From an uncultured Clostridia bacterium (GTDB lineage: Bacteria; Bacillota; Clostridia; UMGS1883): a DNA stretch of 64,000 bases. Location: positions 29,250-93,249 of the forward strand of contig CANQRB010000004.1 in assembly GCA_947626145.1 (NCBI GenBank). The letters are read 5' to 3'. Each line of letters opens with the position of its first letter. Position 1 is the stretch's first letter. Below the pieces are notes generated by a model that saw only the letters and a list, made by a program, of their open reading frames with translations, made no database searches and was not told where the DNA came from. This document shows positions 4,721-29,714 of the stretch, one piece after another. A program made the translations under genes and the position numbers.

Positions 4721-7700
4721 TTACAGCTCGGGAATGAAGTCGACTTCCGCACCAGCGGAATCAGCTTCGGTCTCGGCGATTTCGGTACTTACAAACTCAA
4801 TCTCAACACTGTCTAGGCTGAAGATCATAGCACCATCAACGCCTTCACAAGTAACATCATTGCCATTGATAGTTATCTTATAGAACAAGCCCTCAGTTTG
4901 AGTTGCTGTTTTATCTGTGCCGTTTACATCAACAATGGTAGATACCTTGAAGCCTATACCATTATCGTAAAGGGCTTTATCCAGTTCTATCGTTGTTCCT
5001 GCTTCACTGCTTGTAACTTTAATGAATTCTTTACGAACATCGTTAATAGCGTTCTTGTCATCAAGAACAACACCGCCGGTGCTGAGAATAGCAATGGCCT
5101 GTTCAAGCTTTTTTGCATCAAATTTTTCACGATTCAAAGTATCTTTGTAGTCGCTAAGGTTGGTTTTGATATCGTTAGCAAGCAACTCATAAAGAGATGC
5201 TTCAGCTTGAGCGATGAGATAACCGCTATTTGTGTCAACAAGCCTTGCCATATAGTAAATATTGCTTCCATTGTCTTTTTTCGGAATAACAAGTACAGAC
5301 GGAGCCCCGTTACTGAGGACAGAAGTGTCTATAGTCGTATTGTCTACTCCTTTACCGCCTTTTTCATTTGTTGTTTCGTGAAGATCAATAGCTGTAACCT
5401 TTAGCGTCTGTCCATCATAAGCACCATCGGCAGTAAAAGTTATGCCCAAAGTATCCGCACTGTCTCCATCAGCAGCAAAGCCAAGTCCAGCGGTGAGTGT
5501 AGCCGTCGCAGGAACGTCCACGCCACCTGCATATACGGCAAACTTGCTGATCTCAAGGTCTCCTTCACTTGAGGGATTGTTTCCAAAGAAGGAAACACCG
5601 TCAATTCCTCCATTGTTACGGAATGGTATGCCCATCAACATTTTACCTTCACCGGATGATTCATTCCGCACGGAAAGATTATATGTGTTATTTGTAACAT
5701 CAACATCTACGATAAAAGCATATGACTGATTAAGCTCCATTGTCATAAATTCTTTCTTGGCGGCGTTGTCTCTGTAGTAAATTTTGTCGCCACCGATAGG
5801 CAAATGAATACGAAGATTTGTGCCATACGCATCTGTCCCTTTTGCGTCGTACTTAAAAAATCCGATAGCGTTGTCGCCGTTTTGTTTGGCAACAAGAGTA
5901 AATGCGACGGTAAATTTGTCTGATATTTCTTTAGGGAAACGATACATTTCACTAAATGTCCTACCCTGATTGTTGATTACTGAGTTAGAACCAACGGTCA
6001 TGCCGGCTGTAGGATCAAATGTCTTTTCATGAGTCACAACATTTGCCGTCAAGGTAAGGCCTGTATCGGCGATAGTGCCGGTAGTATCCTCCCATGTTAC
6101 GGGCAATTCCTCGGCTGTCACTGCATCACTGTCAACAGTGGTCTTAATTGCGGTGGGAAGAACATAGTTATATCCTTCGAGAGTATTAATGTCAATGCTG
6201 TCGGGGCCGGTGATGGTGGCAGTTAACTCGGCCTCAACCTCAATTTCCTTAGTAGTGGTTGCGATAATAGTATCCTGATCAGACGCCTTATTGGTATAAT
6301 ATTTATCTGCTATGCGACGATTAGTAATAATCTTGCCATCACTGGCGGCACGGCCTTGATCAACGACCTGGTTTTCTGCAACTTTTACCGTTTCGCCTAC
6401 CTTGCCGGTCTGTTTCTCGATAGTGGCTACAGTTTGACCCTTGTATTTGGCATTTATGACGTAATCCACATCGTCGTTTTCAAGATTGCTAAGTTTGGTT
6501 ATTTTGAAGTTGTCGATGATGGGCTGAGTATCGTTACCGACCCAAGCGGTCTTAAAGCCCAGTTTTGTCTGCTTGGAACCGGTCCATACAATAAACTGCT
6601 TCGTCTCAAATTGATTGAGAGTGTGCAGGGTCATCTGCTGAAGCTTTTGGCTGGTATTGTCATTTTTGTCGGCATACCAATCAGCGCAGGGGTCGTCGGC
6701 CTCGCCGGTGCCATTGGCATCGGTTACGTAAAGCCACATATACTGATCCTTTGCCTGCTTGGTTGGCATGACGTCAAAGCTCACGAGATAACGGGTATTG
6801 GGGTCAACATTCCAAGTGCCGCCGAAAACAGTTCCGGCCGCACCGGCAACGCCCTTGAGCCAAAGAGCCTGGCTTCCTTCGGTCTTTTGGTTCTCACCCT
6901 TGACTATCTCATATTCTTCATTGGGTATATTAGTCCAACCATTAATACCATTTTCAAAGCCGTCGTTGGTGCCGGTAACAGTTCCCTCGACATTTTTTAC
7001 ATGTTTGGCGGTAATGTCGTAGTTGTTATTACCTTCACTCAAAGTGATCTCTTTGATTTCGGGGAGAGCAAGTTCATAAAGCTTTTCATTTTTAACAAGG
7101 TACTTGTTGCAACTGTTGAGAGAAAACTTATCTCCGGCAAAGTATTCCTTTTTATTTCCGTTTGGATTAGACTCCTCCAAAACATTTCCGCCGTCCATTA
7201 TGCGAACATTGACAGCAGCGTCGGGAGACAAAACCTTAACATCAGCAAGGTAAGCATCCTTAAGAGAAGCTACACCCCCAGTGGCATCTCCGCCGTGGAT
7301 ATTGGAGAGCAGAAAAGCGACCTTACCACCAACTATCTTATCGGCAGGAATACGGAGCTGAGACGTCACCTCAGTCCATGAATTAGATACATTTGATGTA
7401 CTCAGTGTTCCGACAAGAACTCTGCCCTCAACAGCAGTATCGAGCAGAGCGTTGTTCTCAGCTTCAACAGCTGCAGGGTCAACAGCAAAAATGGCAGCTT
7501 TAGATATACGGTCGTTAGCACCATTGTTAGACCATGCCTGAACCTTAAAGGTAGCCCGAAGAATTTGACCGGCAGCAACATTAGTGTCTTCTGGCAGTGT
7601 GAATTCAGCAAAACCCGCACGGTTATTTGAGAAAGACACTATGGCAGACTGAGCGTCTTGAACTTTGTATTCGTCAAATGTTTGCGGACGCTTAGCATCG

Positions 7701-7825
7701 GAATTAAAATTCCAACCATAAAGCTTATCTGCGGCGATATCTCCATCAGCCGCAAAAGCTACGGGCACTACTGTCAATACCATGGCCAAAACCACAGCCA
7801 ATGACAGAACTTTTTTGATTCTCAT
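4721..7825 (-). CDS. Large secreted protein of unknown function (1034 aa) with an Ig-like/carbohydrate-binding-like flavour
   Basis: AGGAGG RBS and a signal peptide MRIKKVLSLAVVLAMVLTVVPVAFAADG. The sequence is AT-rich relative to the core. An internal segment (LPTAIKTTVDSDAVTAEELPVTWED) resembles bacterial Ig-like repeats. No LPXTG or SLH anchor was seen. Confidence 0.8.
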   Translation of the reverse strand: MRIKKVLSLAVVLAMVLTVVPVAFAADGDIAADKLYGWNFNSDAKRPQTFDEYKVQDAQSAIVSFSNNRAGFAEFTLPEDTNVAAGQILRATFKVQAWSNNGANDRISKAAIFAVDPAAVEAENNALLDTAVEGRVLVGTLSTSNVSNSWTEVTSQLRIPADKIVGGKVAFLLSNIHGGDATGGVASLKDAYLADVKVLSPDAAVNVRIMDGGNVLEESNPNGNKKEYFAGDKFSLNSCNKYLVKNEKLYELALPEIKEITLSEGNNNYDITAKHVKNVEGTVTGTNDGFENGINGWTNIPNEEYEIVKGENQKTEGSQALWLKGVAGAAGTVFGGTWNVDPNTRYLVSFDVMPTKQAKDQYMWLYVTDANGTGEADDPCADWYADKNDNTSQKLQQMTLHTLNQFETKQFIVWTGSKQTKLGFKTAWVGNDTQPIIDNFKITKLSNLENDDVDYVINAKYKGQTVATIEKQTGKVGETVKVAENQVVDQGRAASDGKIITNRRIADKYYTNKASDQDTIIATTTKEIEVEAELTATITGPDSIDINTLEGYNYVLPTAIKTTVDSDAVTAEELPVTWEDTTGTIADTGLTLTANVVTHEKTFDPTAGMTVGSNSVINNQGRTFSEMYRFPKEISDKFTVAFTLVAKQNGDNAIGFFKYDAKGTDAYGTNLRIHLPIGGDKIYYRDNAAKKEFMTMELNQSYAFIVDVDVTNNTYNLSVRNESSGEGKMLMGIPFRNNGGIDGVSFFGNNPSSEGDLEISKFAVYAGGVDVPATATLTAGLGFAADGDSADTLGITFTADGAYDGQTLKVTAIDLHETTNEKGGKGVDNTTIDTSVLSNGAPSVLVIPKKDNGSNIYYMARLVDTNSGYLIAQAEASLYELLANDIKTNLSDYKDTLNREKFDAKKLEQAIAILSTGGVVLDDKNAINDVRKEFIKVTSSEAGTTIELDKALYDNGIGFKVSTIVDVNGTDKTATQTEGLFYKITINGNDVTCEGVDGAMIFSLDSVEIEFVSTEIAETEADSAGAEVDFIPEL

Positions 7826-7878
7826 TTTTGTTACCTCCTTAAAATTTTGCTAAAAAATAAATCCTCGATTTCATGCGC

Positions 7879-7909
7879 ACTTCCTATAAGAAATGCTATC
7901 GGAAGTAAA
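7879..7909. repeat. Left copy of a 31-bp inverted repeat (itself a hairpin)
   Basis: acttccTata-agaaatgc-tatcggaagt-aaa. Its reverse complement matches 8184-8214 at 30 of 31 positions, including the 8-nt loop. Confidence 0.9.
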
Positions 7910-8022
7910 TTTATGCCGTTTTACGGCAATATTTACAACATAAAAATGAAAATTAGAAATTATTTGTTGAAATTGCACAATTACTCACAACAATTTTGTA
8001 CATTATGGATAAGGGAAAGATA

Positions 8023-8052
8023 TTGACTTTTTTATGGCAAAAGTAGTATAAT
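8023..8052 (+). promoter_or_regulatory. Near-consensus sigma-70-type promoter pointing away from the 1034-aa gene
   Basis: TTGACT (8023-8028), an 18-nt spacer, then TATAAT (8047-8052). It lies inside the segment bracketed by the inverted repeats. Confidence 0.7.
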
Positions 8053-8183
8053 TAGATTATAAAATTTCATGTGCCGATCATAGGAAAGCCTCGGAAAAAG
8101 GCCGTGTTAAGCCGGATTTGCCCGGTTGACGGCGCAGAGGTCGACTGCAAAGCCAGCCTTGGAGCGATGAATGGCCGCTCGGT

Positions 8184-8214
8184 TTTACTTCCGATAGCAT
8201 TTCTTATCGGAAGT
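8184..8214. repeat. Right copy of the 31-bp inverted repeat (perfect 10-bp-stem hairpin)
   Basis: ttt-acttccgata-gcatttct-tatcggaagt. The loop is the exact reverse complement of the left-copy loop. Confidence 0.9.
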
Positions 8215-8229
8215 TCGATGAAATCATAC

Positions 8230-8471: not shown

Positions 8472-9041
8472 TTGAGCGGATTGGCGGCGGAGCACGAGGA
8501 ACTTAAATGGATAAGGAAAATCAAGCTGTTCGGTTCAAAAAAAGACGCCGACAGTCTGGTTCGGTCTTATTACGATGAGATTTACAGATATGTATCCCGA
8601 CAGCTTCCCGACAGCGGGGACGCCTGGGATCTTACTCAGGAAATCTTTATATCCATGCTGCGCTCCATAAAGTCGTACAAAAAAGAACGGTCGTCCTTCC
8701 GCACATGGCTGTACCGCATCGCCACAAACAAAATTATAGACTGCCGCCGGAAAAAGGTTCCGACGACTGCCGCGCCCGACGAAGTCAATACAGCCGACGA
8801 TGCCGATTTTATAAGTCAAATCGCCCAGGCCGAGCTGCTGAAAAAAATCGAGGGCTATGTCAACCGCTTTTCGCCCGCCGTGCAGCAGATATACAGACTG
8901 CACATTTACGGGGATTTTACCTTCGCAAGCATCGCTTCAGCCCTGGACATCCCTGAGGCCACCGTAAAATCCCACTATTACAGATTGCAGAAAAAAATAA
9001 GAGAGGAGTTTGGCGATGAGTACAGAGACGTTGTCGAATGA
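8472..9041 (+). CDS. ECF-family RNA polymerase sigma factor
   Basis: Region 2 (DAWDLTQEIFISMLRSIKSYK...FRTWLYRIATNKIIDCRRKK) and region 4 HTH (FASIASALDIPEATVKSHYYRLQKKIRE). The start is TTG 8472, or more likely TTG 8481, which lies 9 nt after GGAGG. Confidence 0.9.
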   Translation: MSGLAAEHEELKWIRKIKLFGSKKDADSLVRSYYDEIYRYVSRQLPDSGDAWDLTQEIFISMLRSIKSYKKERSSFRTWLYRIATNKIIDCRRKKVPTTAAPDEVNTADDADFISQIAQAELLKKIEGYVNRFSPAVQQIYRLHIYGDFTFASIASALDIPEATVKSHYYRLQKKIREEFGDEYRDVVE

Positions 9042-13092: not shown

Positions 13093-13404
13093 CTATTCTA
13101 ACTTTTTTTGATAATCGCTTTTAGCATAAACGACTCTCGTAACAGTTATCAGCTTCTCGCGCTCATCCACACGATAAAACATAATATAATTCTTAATCAG
13201 CAGTTTACGGTACTCATATTTTAAAGTTTGGAGTGGGCGATAAACAGGCATGGAATACGGAAAAACTCTGATTTTTTCCGCTTCGGTTATAAACTCCTCA
13301 GCTAACCGTCCGGCCGCAATGGGATTTGATAATGTTTTGCCGATATATGTCACAATGTTAATCATATCCTGTTGGGCGATAGGCTGAAACTCCAAATCAT
13401 ACAT
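13093..13404 (-). CDS. Type II toxin, RelE/ParE superfamily
   Basis: About 103 aa (MYDLEFQPIAQQDMINIVTYI...YIMFYRVDEREKLITVTRVVY). The ATG overlaps the end of the antitoxin gene. The fold-family assignment comes from sequence resemblance. Confidence 0.8.
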   Translation of the reverse strand: MYDLEFQPIAQQDMINIVTYIGKTLSNPIAAGRLAEEFITEAEKIRVFPYSMPVYRPLQTLKYEYRKLLIKNYIMFYRVDEREKLITVTRVVYAKSDYQKKLE

Positions 13405-13675
13405 TTTCGGTTTCTCCAATCGCCTCGCGCATATTTTTCAAGACTTCTTTTGGTGAAAACCGCTTGTTTGTCATTTCCGCCTCATACTCCGCCTCCTTAA
13501 GCTTAAAGTACACTTCGCTTTCAAACTGAAGATTTTCATAAGCTTCCATACTCATAACAACCATGTCGCCAAAACCGTTTTTTGTTAAGAAAACGGGCTG
13601 CTTTGTTTCGTGGACTGTCTTGGAAATATCCGCAAATTTATTTCTTAAGTCCGAAACGGGTCTTATTAAATTCAT
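13397..13675 (-). CDS. Type II antitoxin, Phd/YefM family
   Basis: MNLIRPVSDLRNKFADISKTVHETKQPVFLTKNGFGDMVVMSMEAYENL is a typical Phd/YefM N-terminus. A GGAGG RBS precedes ATG 13675. Confidence 0.85.
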   Translation of the reverse strand: MNLIRPVSDLRNKFADISKTVHETKQPVFLTKNGFGDMVVMSMEAYENLQFESEVYFKLKEAEYEAEMTNKRFSPKEVLKNMREAIGETENV

Positions 13676-16900: not shown

Positions 16901-18244
16901 ATTCTCATCATATTCTACCCACCTTGCATACAAAGTTAATTTATTGTTAACGGCCAATTTAAAATCATAGATATTTTCGCAATCCCTATCAGTATACCAG
17001 CCACCAAACAAATAATCTTTACGTTCAGGGTCTTTGGGAATTGTAACATTATTTCCAGCTAAAATCTCTTGACTTTCAGGCGCATCCTCTGCCCCTTCAT
17101 AATTCAAATCAAAGGTGACAGTGTAAACGCCGTCCTCCTCAATTTCTTCTTCCCAACCAGCATACAGAGTCAAGCGCTCGGTAATTTCCGTGTTCTCAAA
17201 ATCAAACTCATAAACGCATTCCTCATCTGTGTACCAGCCCGTGAAGATATAGCCCTCTCTTTCGGGATCATCGGGACGCTCTGCATAATCGTTCTTCTTT
17301 ACTTTCTGGGTAGCCGGAGGATTTTTCGCTCCTGAATAATTCAGGTCAAATTTTACATTGTATCTCGTGGTGCCGCCGGAGCTTCCGCCACCACCGCCAC
17401 CACCGGTGGAACGACTTATCGTATATTCAACGCTCATCACATCGCTGACAAGAACATCATCTTTTACCGCGATTGCCTTCAGTGTCGCGGTAGACAGTAT
17501 ATTTATATTGCCACCTGTGTATTCCTCGCTGTCAACTGTGGGCTCTGTTCCATCGGTCGTATAGTAAATCTTAACGCCCTCGGTGTCGCTCTTAAGCGTT
17601 ACAAGCTGATTTACATAATATGTGCCCGCCTCAACGGACGCGACAGGGGCGGCTACCGTTGTGCGGAGACCGTTATAAACCATTACGGCAATGTCCCCAC
17701 GGGTAGAGGCTGATCCCTTTCTGCCCTTGAGGTTATCCGTTATACCGTTATCCTCAGCCGCTTTAATATAGCCGGCAGACCAATCATCAGGGTCGGATTC
17801 AACATCGTCGCCAAGACCGACGCCGCAAACCACCATCTTTATGGCCTCTTCATATTTGACGTCGTCATCCGGCATAAATCCGCCGCTACCGTTGCCGTTT
17901 ATTATCTCCTCTTTCGCGGCGACATTGATGTAGCCGCTGGCCCAGTGGTCGGCGGGAACATCGTCAAACTTTGTGGCGCCCTTGGAATTGCGGGCATCGT
18001 TCTCCTTGCCTATCATGCGGCATACTACCGCCGCCATTTCGGACCTTGTGATAGATTTATCCGCCCCAAATGTACCGTCGGCGTAGCCGGTGAAAATGTC
18101 GAGCTTTTCCAGAGCGAGAGCCGCCTCGGCGTAATACTCATTCCCCGTAACATCGGAAAAGACCGTGCCTGCGGCAAAAGCACCGATCGGCGCAAGCGAC
18201 AGTGTCATTGCCAAAACTAAAATGATGCTTAAAAATTTTTTCAC
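13928..18244 (-). CDS. S-layer-homology-anchored multidomain M4 (thermolysin-like) metalloprotease
   Basis: GTG start 8 nt after GGAGG, then a signal peptide. SLH-type repeats are present (FSDVTGNEYYAEAALALEKLDIFTGY..., FDDVPADHWASGYI...). A poly-Gly linker follows. Two InlB-B/Listeria-Bacteroides-type repeats are seen (YNVKFDLNYSG...GYIFTGWYTD, YTVTFDLNYEG...DYLFGGWYTD). The zinc site is IIAHEYTHGV with a downstream NEAYADIFG. C-terminal beta-sandwich-like repeats complete the protein. Confidence 0.9.
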   Translation of the reverse strand: MKKFLSIILVLAMTLSLAPIGAFAAGTVFSDVTGNEYYAEAALALEKLDIFTGYADGTFGADKSITRSEMAAVVCRMIGKENDARNSKGATKFDDVPADHWASGYINVAAKEEIINGNGSGGFMPDDDVKYEEAIKMVVCGVGLGDDVESDPDDWSAGYIKAAEDNGITDNLKGRKGSASTRGDIAVMVYNGLRTTVAAPVASVEAGTYYVNQLVTLKSDTEGVKIYYTTDGTEPTVDSEEYTGGNINILSTATLKAIAVKDDVLVSDVMSVEYTISRSTGGGGGGGSSGGTTRYNVKFDLNYSGAKNPPATQKVKKNDYAERPDDPEREGYIFTGWYTDEECVYEFDFENTEITERLTLYAGWEEEIEEDGVYTVTFDLNYEGAEDAPESQEILAGNNVTIPKDPERKDYLFGGWYTDRDCENIYDFKLAVNNKLTLYARWVEYDENEFNKAIVQYAYDTLEITYSKGDCKESVTHDLILPTMIETVDISWESNNINVVSESGSVSRPINENKNVRLNASISKGDYNLTKSFEVTVIKESNFNINESPNNSVVDIEQMNKDADFDTYIEYNEEGSQVTAISGKISDIDINSPDDALYAIYGVRTILGMNDPIKELNISVTNSGKYGTDYTFSQQYNGLDVYDRNLTVSVDNNGTSTSLTSDVVASANLVDVNTDPVISESEAINIAKSQYPQESVDVVSTEVVIYSLDEYEQSPVVAYVICLSGDNIDETVIINGYTGSVIYSGSNILDWGDKRVTGSGENEKNTEVSFPVQFKQWDWLFYYMEDSERNIKMYDGGLVNSRVGSEFNVWRDKTAISAYTNMIDVYNWYADTLGRRSVDGNGYPIKVTVHKFGGSSNACWTGGNKEFYFYDNSNNDSNLQTTTASGLDIIAHEYTHGVVQFKTGNGLSHDHSNGHISYAINEAYADIFGWFVDDNNYTIGEDWRPLRNVKDPSSCHKPSKVGGTNWCTNTGNKSVFAHTNSSVISHAAYLMSQGYPSYSLPAISMSKLIDLWYGSLGKGFSANSNFKTVRRNVLLQADTQGLSKAEKMTIKRAFDDVGIYGDRGTLYIQIVDAEDETFIKDATISILDDDFLIGKVQIGAEGAKELSLDVGTYSVVIEKDGYMPFYGLATVTKDNQTEELVKLVKSGEGKISGVITSATTGYPIDGVIVRLRNGWNSSKGEEISSTITNGSGEYSLTASSGYYTIEMEKYGYTTGYFNVTIIGGREVANQNGSISPSMTSNQYRAVLRWNMNPSDLDSHLVGSLSDHRNFHVYFSNRNGYNASGDLVANLDVDDTDGEGPETVTFEVDINSTYEYYVYWFYGEGTWATSGAQVELYNGNNLVEVYKVSSNQSGNSWPVFKISNGILINYHDEESLVSIESLPDKVPIKDISNEFGGKELKNEESVETAFEGDISENKNTGKKDEELNGNDETDGMIAL

Positions 18245-18342
18245 GATTGTAACCTCCAATTTTATTTATTCACTTTCTAATTGCAGGAAAACACCGCCAC
18301 TGTATGTCACGCCCCCTTTTGGGCGAATTTGTCCTCCGTACA

Positions 18343-18623
18343 ATAAAAAATGCGCAGCTCATCGGAGCCGCGCACGAAAAATGCTTAGCTCCGAATTTAC
18401 TGCGACATAAATTAATATAACACAAAAGAAACGCATTTTTGGCACTCGCTCATTAAAAATGCAACCAGAGCGTTACAGGAGCAGCATTTTTACCAATGCT
18501 AATGTTGCTCCGGTTAGCACTTTTATACGTTAGAATGTTAAAACAATGATAGAAAATATAGGTACTCAAAAAAGAGCGCAAAAAGCGAACTTAATAAGCG
18601 TTTCTATATTAATCTATGTCGCA
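18343..18623 (-). ncRNA. Candidate ~280-nt structured leader or ncRNA upstream of the protease gene
   Basis: The predicted TSS (~18622) coincides with the 5' arm of a long-range helix. Arm 18598-18623 pairs with arm 18401-18434 over 19+7 bp, with one G-U pair and an 8-nt bulge. The unit ends in the hairpin GCGCGGCTC-cgat-GAGCTGCGC plus T6 (18343-18373). An upstream UCGGAGC (18388-18394) can pair instead with the terminator 5' arm. Confidence 0.4.
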
Positions 18624-18628
18624 AATAA

Positions 18629-18657
18629 AGTATACCACACATTTTTCCGGTTGTAAA
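18629..18657 (-). promoter_or_regulatory. Strong sigma-70-type promoter driving the leader/ncRNA
   Basis: On the minus strand: TTTACA, a 17-nt spacer, then TATACT with an upstream TGg (extended -10). Confidence 0.65.
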
Positions 18658-19187
18658 GTGTTTTTTTTTCGTAAATGAATAATTTTTTATAACATATTCG
18701 CCGCGAAACCCATCTAGGCGCTTATCTTGCTGCTGAACGGCTCCCCGACTGTTTTACAAAAGAGTCGAACATTGCACAAATTCGTTCTTCGTAGGAAGGA
18801 GCTGCCACAACATTTCCCTCCTTTTGCTAAAAATTGTTCTTGGTCGGTTTTCCCCCCCTTTGTAATACCGGAACAATTTAAGTTATACAAAATCGGAAAT
18901 TTTTTTAAATTATCTGAAAAAGTCAAAATAAAAAGGACAGATTAATATCTATCATTCTCAGTATTCAATTACATCGCCTTTAAAAATCCCCTCCGGCGCA
19001 TGAGGGGGTTTACGCCGGAGAAAATTTTATATATCAAAGAGGCCCGTGCCTCTTAATTTTTGCGGCCGGTTATGCCTGAGTCGCGGCGTCCGTCTTGACT
19101 CTGCGGAAGCGCACCAGACCCGTACGGTGAAGGGCAACCATTATTGCCGGGATAAGCACAAGTTGAAGTATTATTCCGGGGATGGCG

Positions 19188-20000
19188 TTAAGCACCGCAG
19201 TCTGCGCAGGACAAAAAACCTGAAAAGATGTCGATTTCGCCTGACTTTGTTGGTCTATGTTGCATGGCGATCCGCTTCTGTGCAAGCTCAAAGATTTCTT
19301 CGTCAATTAACGGCTCATGCGTATTAGGTAAGAAATAGCGTTGTTCTGCCTCTTTTTCGACTTATACGAAACCTTGTGTGTTTTCTCAGTGATGATATGC
19401 CCTAAATACTTTTACCGTGTCAGGATGTCAAACAGCGTTTTCTCCGGCCATGTGTAAGGAGCGATCAAGGCTTTCTGATGTCGCGCATTCCTCGTCCGCT
19501 CATAACGTAATGCACCGATTGTCAAAACCTTGTTGTCGTCAAGCCATCGCTGAATATCGCACATCTGAGTATCCTTCACATACATGACGAAAATCTGCTT
19601 GACTATGAGATGTATCCGTATGGATATTCCCCGTTGACGTGCTCGCCCTTTTGAGTCCGCGCCTGCTTTGCGGCTCGGTGGTTGTCGCTCGGCATATTCT
19701 CTCGGATATGTGTCATGGCACACCCGCCGTATGGCTCGGCGCAAAAGGGATGTGTCCTTTGTTGCTGTTATGATGCCTCGCTGTTATCTTGCGGGCAAAT
19801 TTGTCGAGGTTCGTACAGATGGGGAGTATCGGAAAGGGGGATTTATGCGCCGCTCCAGGTCGTCGGGTCAGTTCACCTGAAAAGTCAGAATTTTTGTAAT
19901 GAGCTTCGTTTCCAGTCTGCTGATCTTCGTCTACGCACAAATGAGGATTGCCATACTCGTCGTTTTCGATGTACACTGTATGATCCAGAATACCGAAAGC
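19188..20000 (-). pseudogene. Decayed large serine recombinase (conjugative-transposon/DUF4368 type), frameshifted and 3'-truncated; bounds approximate
   Basis: Fragments in different frames resemble this family: IVKQIFVMYVKDTQMCDIQRWLDDNKVLT...YTWPEKTLFDILTR (19412-19744) and NTHEPLIDEEIFELAQKRIAMQHRPTKSGEIDIFSGFLSCADCGA* (about 19188-19325). The latter is the recombinase/Zn-ribbon region, cut right after CxxCG. Confidence 0.6.
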
Positions 20001-20366
20001 CCTGTCCTCTTTGAAATAACTGTCTCAGACTGAAAGCTGATTCATTACTTCAACAGGAAATTCGACAAAGAAAATCGCCTGCCTGCACATGGCAGGCGGG
20101 CGAAACGGAACTAACAGAAGTATTTACGTGATTTATGTGTTCATCTTCCTCGGCAGGGTATCCCGCTTGCTGGGTCAGACTTCTTTTGAGCGAAGAACCA
20201 TTGCCGGAATTTGTCGATATGGAATAGGCTTCATGGCGGCTACCTCCTGTTAGCCGCCATACCTGTTAGCCTGCAGTTTCTTCCCTTGTATCAAGAGAAA
20301 TGGCAGCCTATGAAAAACAAGCATATAACCAAGAGCAGCAGTATATAGGCTCTGCGTCTATGCGTC

Positions 20367-20513
20367 TTACTCTTTTACAACCTCGATCCGTAGGTGTTCC
20401 TCGTTAATCAGCGTTTTGCGTTTGCATTTGGGACAATACAACGGAAAGTTCTCCAGAATGGTATCTTCCAGTATTTTAATTCGTGTTTTGCTTTTACAAA
20501 CAGGACACAACAC
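20367..20513 (-). CDS. Cysteine-rich KTR-domain small protein (about 48 aa from a GTG start)
   Basis: Hand translation gives VLCPVCKSKTRIKILEDTILENFPLYCPKCKRKTLINEEHLRIEVVKE*. The CPxC...KTR...CPKC pattern is typical of small proteins found beside recombinases in clostridial mobile elements. The start codon is uncertain. Confidence 0.55.
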   Translation of the reverse strand: MLCPVCKSKTRIKILEDTILENFPLYCPKCKRKTLINEEHLRIEVVKE

Positions 20514-20716
20514 CAAAACGCTTTTATTTACTCCGATTCGAACTACTCCCTGCGAATTGCAATAAGTGTTTTAAACTATTACCCTCAACAAAGCACAACA
20601 ACCAGATATTTCCTGACGGCAATTTTTTGCGAAATGATTCCCGTAATTATCGTCGATGCATTGCTGTGAGCAGGTATTTATTTTGTAAAAAGTCGTTGCT
20701 GCCCGTATTTTAATTT

Positions 20717-21340
20717 TTACGATTTTTTGAACTTCGTTTTAAGCGCCTCAAAGTTTGCTTTCAGCTTGGCACGCTCAGCTTCCATTTTCTGCTTGCGTTC
20801 TGCGCTACGCTCAGCGTGCATCTTACGGCGAGCTTCGTCGGCAAGTTCTTTTTCTACGCGCATTGCTTCTTCTACCTCGTCCTGTACCAATGTAGCATCG
20901 CGTCGAAGAATCGTCGTTTGAAACTTATCGAACCGAAAATCCAGTGCATGATCTGTTTCCTCCTGCGCAAGGAGAAGAATCGCGACCTCACCGTCCTCCA
21001 GCTTTGATCCAACCGTTTCCAGCATTGTGTTGTTCCGATCCACATCATCAATGTCTTTGGCGCTTCCAATCAGATGACCTGTCATACCACCCAAAAGGAT
21101 GCCGAGAGGACCACCGAGAATTCCGATCAGACCGCCAATCAGACCGCCCGCGAGGGCGTCATCGCTGCTGTCCATGCCGCTTGTGAATGAGTCTATGGTG
21201 GAAATTATATTACCGTTTTTCTTTACAAGCGCCCCTTGCAATACGGTATATTGCGGCATAATTGGCTGCTTTTTGATTCCCATGTAGGCTTGATAGCCCT
21301 CGCTTTCCACATTGAACAAAATAGTTAAGACATTTTCCAT
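20717..21340 (-). CDS. Glycine-zipper membrane/stress-type protein (DUF1269-like, from memory)
   Basis: 207 aa. A central AGGLIGGLIGILGGPLGILLGGMTGHLIGS glycine zipper is followed by a K/E/R-rich coiled-coil tail. Confidence 0.65.
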   Translation of the reverse strand: MENVLTILFNVESEGYQAYMGIKKQPIMPQYTVLQGALVKKNGNIISTIDSFTSGMDSSDDALAGGLIGGLIGILGGPLGILLGGMTGHLIGSAKDIDDVDRNNTMLETVGSKLEDGEVAILLLAQEETDHALDFRFDKFQTTILRRDATLVQDEVEEAMRVEKELADEARRKMHAERSAERKQKMEAERAKLKANFEALKTKFKKS

Positions 21341-28928: not shown

Positions 28929-29714
28929 TTATCCAATGCCTCTGAAAGCATTAACGGAAAGAATCGCCACGCCTAAAACCGTCAGCACCACACCAACAGC
29001 CCTGTTGAGCGTTTTGGCGCTGGCCTTGTTTGCGAACAATGCGGCGATCCTTGCCCACAACAGAGTAAACGCCACGCAGAGAGCGAGACACCATAGGTCG
29101 GGCATATCGCCAATGGCAAAATGACTGACGGCGCCGGTCAGCGCGGTAAAGGTCATAATAAAGACACTGGTACCCACAGCGGTTTTTAATTCATATCCCA
29201 AAATGCTGGTCAACAGAAGCAGCATCATCATTCCACCGCCTGCGCCCACAAAACCACAAATGAAGCCGACGACCATTCCGCAGACAATCGACTGAATCGT
29301 CCGCTTTTTTGCGCTTACGACAGCCATCGCCTCCTTTGTGGTCATGACAGGTTTTACAATAAATTTGATGCCCAAAAGCATCGTCATGAAGACGGAGAAG
29401 CTGCCCATAGTGGCGTTGGAGACCAGACTGGCTACCCAACTGCCTACTAAGGTGAAAAGCAAGACGGCCACCATCATAACAAGCCCGTTGCGAATGTCGA
29501 TGTTTTTGTTTTTTCCATAGGTATAGGCGCTGACCGCACTTGCCAGCACGTCACTTGCCAGAGCGATGCCTACCGCTTCATAAGCCGGCATACCCATAAA
29601 TGTGATCAGCATTGGGCTGATGACTGCGGCGGCGCTCATTCCGGCAAAACCGGTTCCCAAACCCGCTCCGATACCTGCTATAAAACAAACTAAAACTTTT
29701 ACCCACAGATTCAT
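28929..29714 (-). CDS. TSUP (TauE/SafE) family permease
   Basis: About 261 aa from ATG 29714, which has a GGAGAAAAA RBS. It is polytopic with Gly-rich helices (GAGLGTGFAGMSAAAVISP..., GFVGAGGGMMMLLLL). Confidence 0.8.
   Translation of the reverse strand: MNLWVKVLVCFIAGIGAGLGTGFAGMSAAAVISPMLITFMGMPAYEAVGIALASDVLASAVSAYTYGKNKNIDIRNGLVMMVAVLLFTLVGSWVASLVSNATMGSFSVFMTMLLGIKFIVKPVMTTKEAMAVVSAKKRTIQSIVCGMVVGFICGFVGAGGGMMMLLLLTSILGYELKTAVGTSVFIMTFTALTGAVSHFAIGDMPDLWCLALCVAFTLLWARIAALFANKASAKTLNRAVGVVLTVLGVAILSVNAFRGIG

Follow-up and report, generated by a model that had tools for sequence, protein, structure and literature searches.

In the 64,000-nucleotide (nt) window analyzed here (positions 29,250 to 93,249 of contig CANQRB010000004.1, assembly GCA_947626145.1, from an uncultured Clostridia bacterium), the gene for a 1438-amino-acid (aa) surface protein, whose domains are SLH, CHB_HEX_C, Flg_new and thermolysin M4 protease, is preceded by a promoter, a long inverted repeat and an intrinsic terminator. 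On balance, we favor reading this region as a structured leader of approximately 380 nt at the 5' end of the mRNA for the SLH-anchored M4 protease, acting as a transcription attenuator at the RNA level, and the leader probably represents a new and rare cis-regulatory leader RNA. The terminator and a mutually exclusive antiterminator are present in three versions of the leader, namely that of the window and, from two other uncultured gut Clostridia, a close relative (L002) and a diverged homologue (L030), with pairing kept where the window and L030 differ in sequence, and folding is favored on the transcribed strand.

Organization of the leader

All leader coordinates refer to the minus strand. 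In the order of transcription, the elements are:

18657-18629, minus strand: sigma-A-type promoter, with -35 TTTACA (18657-18652), a 17-nt spacer and an extended -10 TGgTATACT (18637-18629)
18623-18605, minus strand: 5' arm of the long-range helix P1 (left inverted-repeat core), UGCGACAUAGAUUAAUAUA, beginning at the predicted transcript 5' end and 100% conserved in L002
18604-18598, minus strand: 5' strand of helix P1b, GAAACGC, directly following the P1 5' arm
18597-18526, minus strand: U-rich, weakly structured 5' half of the enclosed domain, the least conserved part, with 8 of the 16 window/L002 substitutions
18525-18454, minus strand: long internal hairpin (A:A'), with AUUGGUAAAAAUGC at its tip
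18491-18478, minus strand: A', AAAAAUGCUGCUCC, complementary to the antiterminator 5' strand B
18434-18428, minus strand: 3' strand of P1b, GCGUUUC, followed by an 8-nt bulge, UUUUGUGU (18427-18420)
18419-18401, minus strand: 3' arm of P1 (right inverted-repeat core), UAUAUUAAUUUAUGUCGCA
18394-18381, minus strand: B, the antiterminator 5' strand, UCGGAGCU-AA-GCAU
18375-18342, minus strand: intrinsic terminator, GUGCGCGGCUC / CGAU / GAGCUGCGCAU plus U-tract, of which the 5' arm and loop (18375-18362) form the antiterminator 3' strand
18325-18310, minus strand: GC-rich hairpin, CGCCCAAAAGGGGGCG, past the terminator and ahead of the ribosome-binding site
18257-13928, minus strand: the regulated gene, with ribosome-binding site GGAGG (18257-18253) and GTG start at 18244

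The strong minus-strand promoter proposed in the initial annotation is present as a 10/12 match with a TG ahead of the -10 element, and it would place the transcript start at G18622, 7 nt past the -10 element and at the first base of P1. No credible open reading frame (ORF) or ribosome-binding site is found within the leader, and a search for a promoter-like site between the end of the terminator (18342) and the start codon (18244) found none in the window. Between the terminator and the real ribosome-binding site there is also a decoy-like GGAGG (18337-18333, minus strand), and the GC-rich hairpin located there reads as a weak terminator on the plus strand.

The long-range helix, initially described as 26 base pairs (bp), was found as 19+7 bp, starting at the predicted transcript 5' end. 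Its 19-nt core, TGCGACATA[G/A]ATTAATATA, occurs at exactly two sites in the 64 kb when up to 3 mismatches are allowed, with 0.02 expected by chance. The single difference between the arms forms, as had been noted, a G-U pair in the transcript sense, and the 8-nt bulge (TTTTGTGT in the DNA) is likewise present; past this bulge, GAAACGC pairs with GCGTTTC, which leaves a spacing of approximately 163 nt between the extended arms.

Competing structures at the terminator

The terminator (GTGCGCGGCTC-CGAT-GAGCTGCGCAT and a T-run in the DNA) has 11 pairs, 7 of them G-C, and ends 98 nt before the GTG start codon, confirming the earlier placement of an intrinsic terminator approximately 100 nt ahead of the protease start. 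The heptamer UCGGAGC (18388-18394) had been proposed to form an antiterminator-like alternative, and this proposal also held: UCGGAGCU (18394-18387) pairs with GGCUCCGA (18369-18362), and GCAU pairs with GUGC. The minimum-free-energy (MFE) state of the full leader contains the antiterminator and not the terminator, with predicted probabilities of 0.77 and 0.20, respectively. Duplex energies of the antiterminator were -19.8, -18.3 and -19.1 kcal/mol in the window, L002 and L030, values matched by only 1, 8 and 9 of 5000 shuffles; a cruder test based on contiguous pairing runs gave weaker values (0.02 and 0.14). Folds with the antiterminator and folds in which the terminator was enforced are nearly equal in energy in all three versions (-92.5 vs -91.7, -88.9 vs -88.8 and -78.2 vs -74.1 kcal/mol).

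Two further pairings connect the upstream part of the leader with these structures. The duplex between A' (AAAAAUGC...) and B (...GCAUUUUU) has an energy of -17.9 kcal/mol in the window, matched by 5 of 500 shuffles, and of -18.4 kcal/mol in L030, matched by 1 of 500. In addition, the 3' end of P1, CGCAG (reaching 18399), has an alternative partner in the CUGCG of the terminator 3' arm.

Related leaders

The window protein was found on two contigs, and the locus L001 is identical to the window. L002 and L003 come from a rabbit-gut metagenome-assembled genome (Lapin-021__bin62). The L002 leader is approximately 94% identical to that of the window, with 16 substitutions in 284 nt (5.6%) and both arms invariant; among the substitutions at paired positions, 5 of 7 keep pairing through wobble pairs. 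The protein encoded behind the L002 leader carries a different payload, an S8 protease, and shows 86% identity over its aligned N-terminal module, which covers 30% of the query.

The diverged leader L030 (GCA_045537455.1) lies upstream of an SLH-VWA gene (P0047) with 60% identity to the query in a BLASTP local alignment covering 25% of the query, its N-terminal module. The parts of L030 occur in the same order as in the window, starting with a promoter, TTGATA-17-TGgTATTAT, that shares the GAAAAATGTG..GTAT context, and a long-range helix of 17 bp, which begins 6-7 nt past the -10 element and contains a single G-U pair in the transcript sense. These are followed by a P1b of 10 bp on the far side of an asymmetric internal loop, a long hairpin with the tip AUUGGCAAAAAUGC (which has the motif AUUGGYAAAAAUGC in common with the tip in the window), an antiterminator of 8+8 bp (AACAAUCG..GUUUGCAU / GUGCGGAC..CGAUUGUU) and a terminator, GUGUGCGGA / UCUGCACAC, with a U-run. 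Because a MAFFT alignment of the three leaders was misaligned beyond the left arm, the helices of the window and L030 were compared one by one with a script, with the following result:

P1: 7 of 17 columns changed on both sides, 0 non-standard pairs
Antiterminator outer helix: 6 of 8 columns changed on both sides, 0 non-standard pairs
Terminator: 2 of 9 columns changed on both sides, 0 non-standard pairs
P1 3' end with terminator 3' arm, the alternative pairing (GUGUG:CACAC in L030): 4 of 5 columns changed on both sides, 0 non-standard pairs

Conservation of the helix in relatives, which had been proposed as a check, was thus found in both L002 and L030.

A block comprising positions 16945-18745 of the window and 140-2000 of L002 is shared at approximately 86-95% identity and contains the 3' end of a phage-type single-stranded DNA (ssDNA)-binding gene (PF10991), the promoter, the leader and the first ~430 codons. 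The PF10991 gene runs upstream to the contig edge in L002, and a stop-containing remnant (~18680-18745) is found in the window. From the extent of this block, the promoter, leader and N-terminal module appear to move together as a recombining cassette, which suggests that cassette-like recombination swaps payloads, an M4 protease in the window vs an S8 protease in L002, behind a constant leader and anchor module.

Probable RNA-level constraint and proposed mechanism

Several features favor the view that the repeats are constrained as RNA rather than as DNA. In each of the three versions, the MFE of the sense strand is much lower than that of the antisense strand (-92.5/-76.0, -88.9/-67.1 and -78.2/-53.1 kcal/mol), and 10-12 G-U pairs form in sense vs 2-3 in antisense. 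Composition-corrected z-scores of the whole-RNA fold were -6.05 (window) and -8.90 (L030) in sense vs -4.93 and -4.92 in antisense, and the sense-favored folding also holds for the repeat-enclosed domain alone. In both inverted-repeat pairs, those of the window and L030, the sole arm mismatch is a G-U pair in the transcript sense. Moreover, the distance to the second helix segment differs between the arms (0 vs 8 nt in the window and 13 vs 5 nt in L030), which would be natural for an internal loop in RNA and unexpected for two equivalent recombinase sites. Finally, the predicted A':B pairing ties the enclosed hairpin to an expression platform that lies outside the repeats. Strand asymmetry, the G-U mismatch, the unequal spacing and the A':B link together therefore favor constraint on RNA over constraint on DNA.

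In the mechanism that we propose, transcription would start from the sigma-A promoter at approximately G18622, and the A:A' hairpin would fold first. The first 19-26 nt of the transcript would then find their partner in 18401-18434, and the resulting helix, P1/P1b, would be very stable and close the long-hairpin domain. P1 would bury the transcript 5' end and probably also shield the mRNA from decay; in Firmicutes, 5'-terminal stem-loops stabilize mRNA. B would pair with the 5' arm and loop of the terminator; as B precedes the terminator in the transcript, the default would be that transcription continues into the protease gene (read-through). Termination, which would yield an RNA of approximately 275 nt, would need B to be sequestered, for which A', at the tip and 3' side of the hairpin, is the conserved candidate; alternatively, a trans-acting factor or a ligand could have this role. 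A more speculative extension, to which we assign a low probability, is that this leader could be the first recognized example of a new, narrowly distributed class of sensor RNA, either riboswitch-like or a protein-dependent attenuator. Such RNAs would control SLH-anchored surface enzymes encoded in mobile-element-rich regions of gut Clostridia, and the AUUGGYAAAAAUGC hairpin tip would toggle an anti-antiterminator. In a hybrid variant, the repeat-flanked segment carrying the anti-antiterminator would itself be invertible, coupling phase variation to attenuation.

A number of points weigh against the attenuator. The paired changes in P1 do not decide between RNA and DNA, because they would be expected equally of an RNA helix and of a DNA inverted repeat with recombination sites. 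Only three distinct versions of the leader were found, two of them approximately 94% identical. An nhmmer search gave no link between the window and L030 leaders, and a two-sequence covariance model of the attenuator found the correct location in L030 only at a non-significant E=6.5; what links these two leaders as homologues is thus their common architecture, their short motifs and the family of the gene that follows. P1, as a perfect helix of 17-19 bp, is far longer than typical riboswitch closing helices and would therefore not act as a switchable element, and the 5' half of the enclosed domain is poorly conserved, unlike an aptamer core. The attenuator was, moreover, derived from sequence and computation, and its effector is hypothetical. 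Of the ligand- or protein-controlled attenuator suggested initially, it is the attenuator part that is supported, given a terminator and antiterminator that recur in three versions, pairing that is kept in L030 and no internal promoter-like site.

DNA inversion as an alternative

The alternative that survives best, which we regard as possible and yet considerably less probable than an attenuator, is a phase switch of the cwpV or flgB type. The arms at 18605-18623 and 18401-18419 would be recombination sites at which a recombinase acting in trans flips the ~185-bp segment between promoter and gene; one orientation could lower read-through or mRNA stability, and such a switch could coexist with the attenuator. 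The geometry is indeed like that of cwpV and flgB, with inverted repeats around approximately 150-200 bp between promoter and ORF, and a comparison of the window with L002 shows 100% conservation of the arms against 5.6% divergence over the whole leader. A second repeat pair in the window (7876-7909 and 8184-8217) encloses a near-consensus promoter. Upstream of a homologous SLH gene, the locus L024 has a tyrosine recombinase gene, 24-nt repeats and an internal consensus promoter, and the motif xxxACATAA is common to the outer repeat edges of L024, the window and L030. Inversion is kept as a live rival because real-looking invertons thus sit nearby and upstream of a homologous gene.

An invertible element had also been put forward in the initial annotation, and this part found no direct support. 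A pattern for the flipped junction, ATACTTTATT-TGCGACATARATTAATATA-(ACACAAAA)-GAAACGCATTTTTGGCAC, tolerant of the crossover position, had 0 matches in the genome and metagenome contigs, a test of low power because the organism is rare and the forward arm pair is present in only one other record. The same orientation is seen in 5 of 5 contigs (the window, L001, L002, L003 and L030). Pfam searches of 18 ORFs and tblastn with the L024 recombinase found no intact recombinase gene in the 64-kb window, only serine-recombinase pseudogene fragments upstream of the leader; in C. difficile, RecV acts in trans, and promoterless invertible segments within 5' untranslated regions (UTRs) exist there (cwpV and flgB; PMC2784873, PMC5386303). 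When the segment was inverted in silico, the predicted probabilities were the same as before, 0.20 for the terminator and 0.77 for the antiterminator, and inspection of the inverted sequence, without a scan by a terminator tool, revealed no cwpV-like terminator at the left-arm junction. The tests for both orientations, for a recombinase and for an orientation-dependent RNA feature were all of limited power. The arms also lack the internal dyad symmetry of the two convincing inverton repeats and differ by an 8-nt indel besides. Lastly, the G-U-rich, sense-specific folding of the interior points to a single orientation that was selected as RNA.

The repeat pair at 7876-8217 consists of 34-nt inverted repeats that are 94% complementary, with each arm dyad-symmetric, and encloses 274 bp. 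Its promoter, TTGACT-18-TATAAT (8023-8052, plus strand), faces a gene for an extracytoplasmic function (ECF) sigma factor (8472-9041, plus strand) and points away from a 1034-aa gene (4721-7825, minus strand) whose product has a signal-peptide-like N-terminus. Its layout makes this element a classic candidate for a promoter inverton, and inversion could redirect the promoter from one of the two genes to the other. The contig of L028 ends inside the element in the same orientation and is thus uninformative on polymorphism.

The element of L024 (98-1267), which has the layout of a textbook inverton and lies upstream of a homologous SLH-VWA gene, comprises the tyrosine recombinase gene (98-919) and palindromic 24-nt repeats at 932-955 and 1139-1162. 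The internal promoter, a perfect TTGACA-17-TATAAT, faces the recombinase gene and points away from the SLH gene, which would therefore be OFF. The outer edge of the L024 repeat, ACCACATAAT, resembles the arms of the window and L030 (GCGACATAAAT and GTCACATAAAA).

Other explanations

A stand-alone small RNA gene of approximately 275 nt, with its own promoter and terminator and with the protease transcribed independently, is unlikely. A strong promoter and a strong terminator do bracket a highly structured RNA that is free of ORFs, and in L030 there is a weak promoter-like site past the terminator. In the window, no such site occurs between 18342 and 18244, the recurring non-random antiterminator would be meaningful only if read-through matters, and in every case the element immediately precedes a homologous SLH gene and has the same orientation as that gene. 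The stand-alone RNA of ~280 nt that had been offered as a separate explanation is simply the terminated product of the same leader.

Marginally less probable still is that the long helix serves chiefly as an RNase III site or a 5'-end stabilizer without switching, with the terminator as a leaky constitutive damper. While P1 forms a near-perfect duplex of 17-26 bp from the 5' end that is kept perfect across divergence, this explanation leaves the conserved antiterminator, the A':B complementarity and the near-equal energies of the two states unexplained.

We consider it very improbable that the repeats are a non-functional relic, such as the footprint of a mobile element (a miniature inverted-repeat transposable element (MITE) or an inverted duplication), or that they are two operators to which a DNA-binding repressor attaches. 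In favor of these readings, the locus lies amid mobile-element debris (serine-recombinase fragments and the 3' remnant of the phage ssDNA-binding gene), and the left arm covers +1 to +19, where operators are typically located. Against them, a direct repeat, and hence a target-site duplication, is absent from the flanks (TTTATT|...|GTAAAT); the window has one copy of the element, and one other record in public collections carries the arm pair; complementarity was maintained through many substitutions relative to L030; and operator sites would be individually palindromic rather than share 19 nt of asymmetric sequence.

Database searches and the wider gene family

Searching the whole window against Rfam at the gathering threshold gave one tRNA and nothing else. 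For the leader at E<=10, three matches at chance level were obtained (9-17 bits vs gathering thresholds of 45-80), and the L030 leader likewise gave nothing beyond chance level. No family, including the cyclic di-GMP (c-di-GMP)-I and -II riboswitches, T-box and PyrR, was matched by either strand, in agreement with the earlier statement, for which an Rfam search had been requested as a check, that the interior does not match any known riboswitch or T-box core. Readings of the region as a PyrR-like site, a retron, attC or oriT were rejected by inspection, and a leader peptide was also rejected (a 42-aa ORF with a TTG start lacks a ribosome-binding site and differs from L002 by non-synonymous changes).

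In the genome and metagenome contig collections, the pattern for the repeat core found the arm pair only in L009, which is the same record as L002; the remaining 18 matches were single chance matches. Viral contigs contained no match to this pattern. As the arm pair is single copy and present in one other record, there is no multi-copy MITE or shared-repeat inverton regulon in the available data. Phage and plasmid collections, and viral loci retrieved by the N-terminal protein module, yielded nothing useful, and the conserved motif GCATTTTTCG(N)TGYGCGG matched only unrelated coding sequences in viral contigs.

The homologous genes in L004, L025, L026, L031/L032, L033 and L034/L035 carry unrelated leaders. 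P0131 proved to be a fragment from the interior of a protein. Among the SLH proteins P0006-P0116, which come from different metagenomes, many share N-terminal 150-aa modules (MKRLTSIFLVLAMLLTLAPMNIFAA...) that are at least 90% identical, and their payloads are very diverse (VWA, lipase, carboxypeptidase-regulatory repeats and S8). By sequence, P0006-P0116 form a large modular family of surface proteins, of which only some members (P0047 in L030) carry this leader.

Comparison with known systems

The leader resembles Firmicute attenuator leaders (riboswitch platforms and those of the PyrR and T-box types) in its promoter, long untranslated leader, intrinsic terminator and mutually exclusive antiterminator, and its upstream A', complementary to an antiterminator strand, corresponds to anti-antiterminator logic. 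Unlike these leaders, it matches no Rfam family and has no recognized conserved aptamer-like core; in addition, its closing helix of 19-26 bp starts from the transcript 5' end, with only the last 4-5 nt overlapping the expression platform.

C. difficile cwpV, which encodes a cell-wall protein, has 21-bp imperfect repeats around 195 bp, a promoter upstream of the element, and a terminator that forms in one orientation only, extending across the point where the left repeat meets the invertible segment (PMC2784873). The window likewise has a promoter outside the element, ~20-bp imperfect repeats around ~190 bp in the 5' UTR of a gene for a large cell-wall-anchored protein, and post-initiation control that would involve an intrinsic terminator. 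However, no part of the terminator of the window falls within the repeats, and its prediction is the same whichever way the segment is oriented.

The flgB element of C. difficile has 21-bp repeats around 154 bp in a 5' UTR that also holds a terminator-forming riboswitch (PMC5386303), and its mechanism, which is Rho-dependent and was experimentally shown, is not predictable from sequence (PMC5386303, PMC7446863). In both flgB and the window, one 5' UTR upstream of surface-structure genes joins terminator-based RNA control with a repeat-flanked segment of approximately 150-190 bp. The order is reversed in the window, where the repeat-flanked segment comes first and the terminator second; furthermore, the window leader has no GEMM (c-di-GMP-I riboswitch) motif, and the flgB repeats, AAGTTRCTATWTTACAAAAAA, are unrelated.

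The SLH motif is an orphan riboswitch candidate upstream of genes for SLH-domain proteins, including in Clostridia, with its type locus in Thermovirga lienii (NC_016148.1/613490-613841) (Stav et al. 2019, PMC6429828). In gene context, the one feature compared, the window leader resembles this candidate, being located upstream of an SLH-protein gene, and no family so named was among the Rfam matches of the leader.

The leaders of B. subtilis aprE and ermC and the 5' UTRs of S-layer genes are 5'-terminal stem-loops that stabilize mRNA and are local hairpins. The helix of the window similarly starts at most 1 nt from the predicted 5' end of a long surface-protein mRNA; unlike in these stabilizers, the 5' end pairs approximately 200 nt downstream and encloses a whole domain.

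Surface proteases and adhesin-like SLH proteins shape the interactions of gut Clostridia with host, food and phages, and their control in uncultured species is largely obscure. A genuine attenuator would be an orphan cis-regulatory RNA with a clear expression platform and would provide a handle for the signal that switches surface enzymes. If the segment were (also) invertible, it would extend post-initiation phase switching of the cwpV/flgB type beyond C. difficile. The window is also a caution that a long inverted repeat in a 5' UTR, even near a real inverton candidate, is not automatically an inverton. Constraint on RNA can be told from constraint on DNA by strand-asymmetric folding, by the use of G-U pairs and by helix segments that are unequally spaced.

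Genomic surroundings and minor observations

Upstream of the leader, integrative-element debris at 18930-20520 includes frameshifted fragments of a large serine recombinase (e.g., ...THEPLIDEEIFELAQKRI...IFSGFLSCADCGA, which weakly matches PF07508), along with a short Cys-rich ORF (approximately 20370-20510) that was read as putative KTR-like. The interval from the DUF1269 gene (20717-21340) to the leader has no intact gene. Directly downstream of the protease gene is a PhdYeFM antitoxin / ParE toxin pair (13093-13675, minus strand), and the equivalent position in L002 is occupied by HNH and RelB genes; these neighbors are consistent with mobile-element surroundings.

Two of the loci with unrelated leaders have repeats of their own. 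In L025, 25-nt imperfect repeats (1039-1186) flank 98 nt holding a 13-bp perfect hairpin. In L033, a palindrome with 10-bp arms (TTATTATAGA-CAT-ATCTATAATAA, 1225-1265) directly follows the -10 region and is operator-like.

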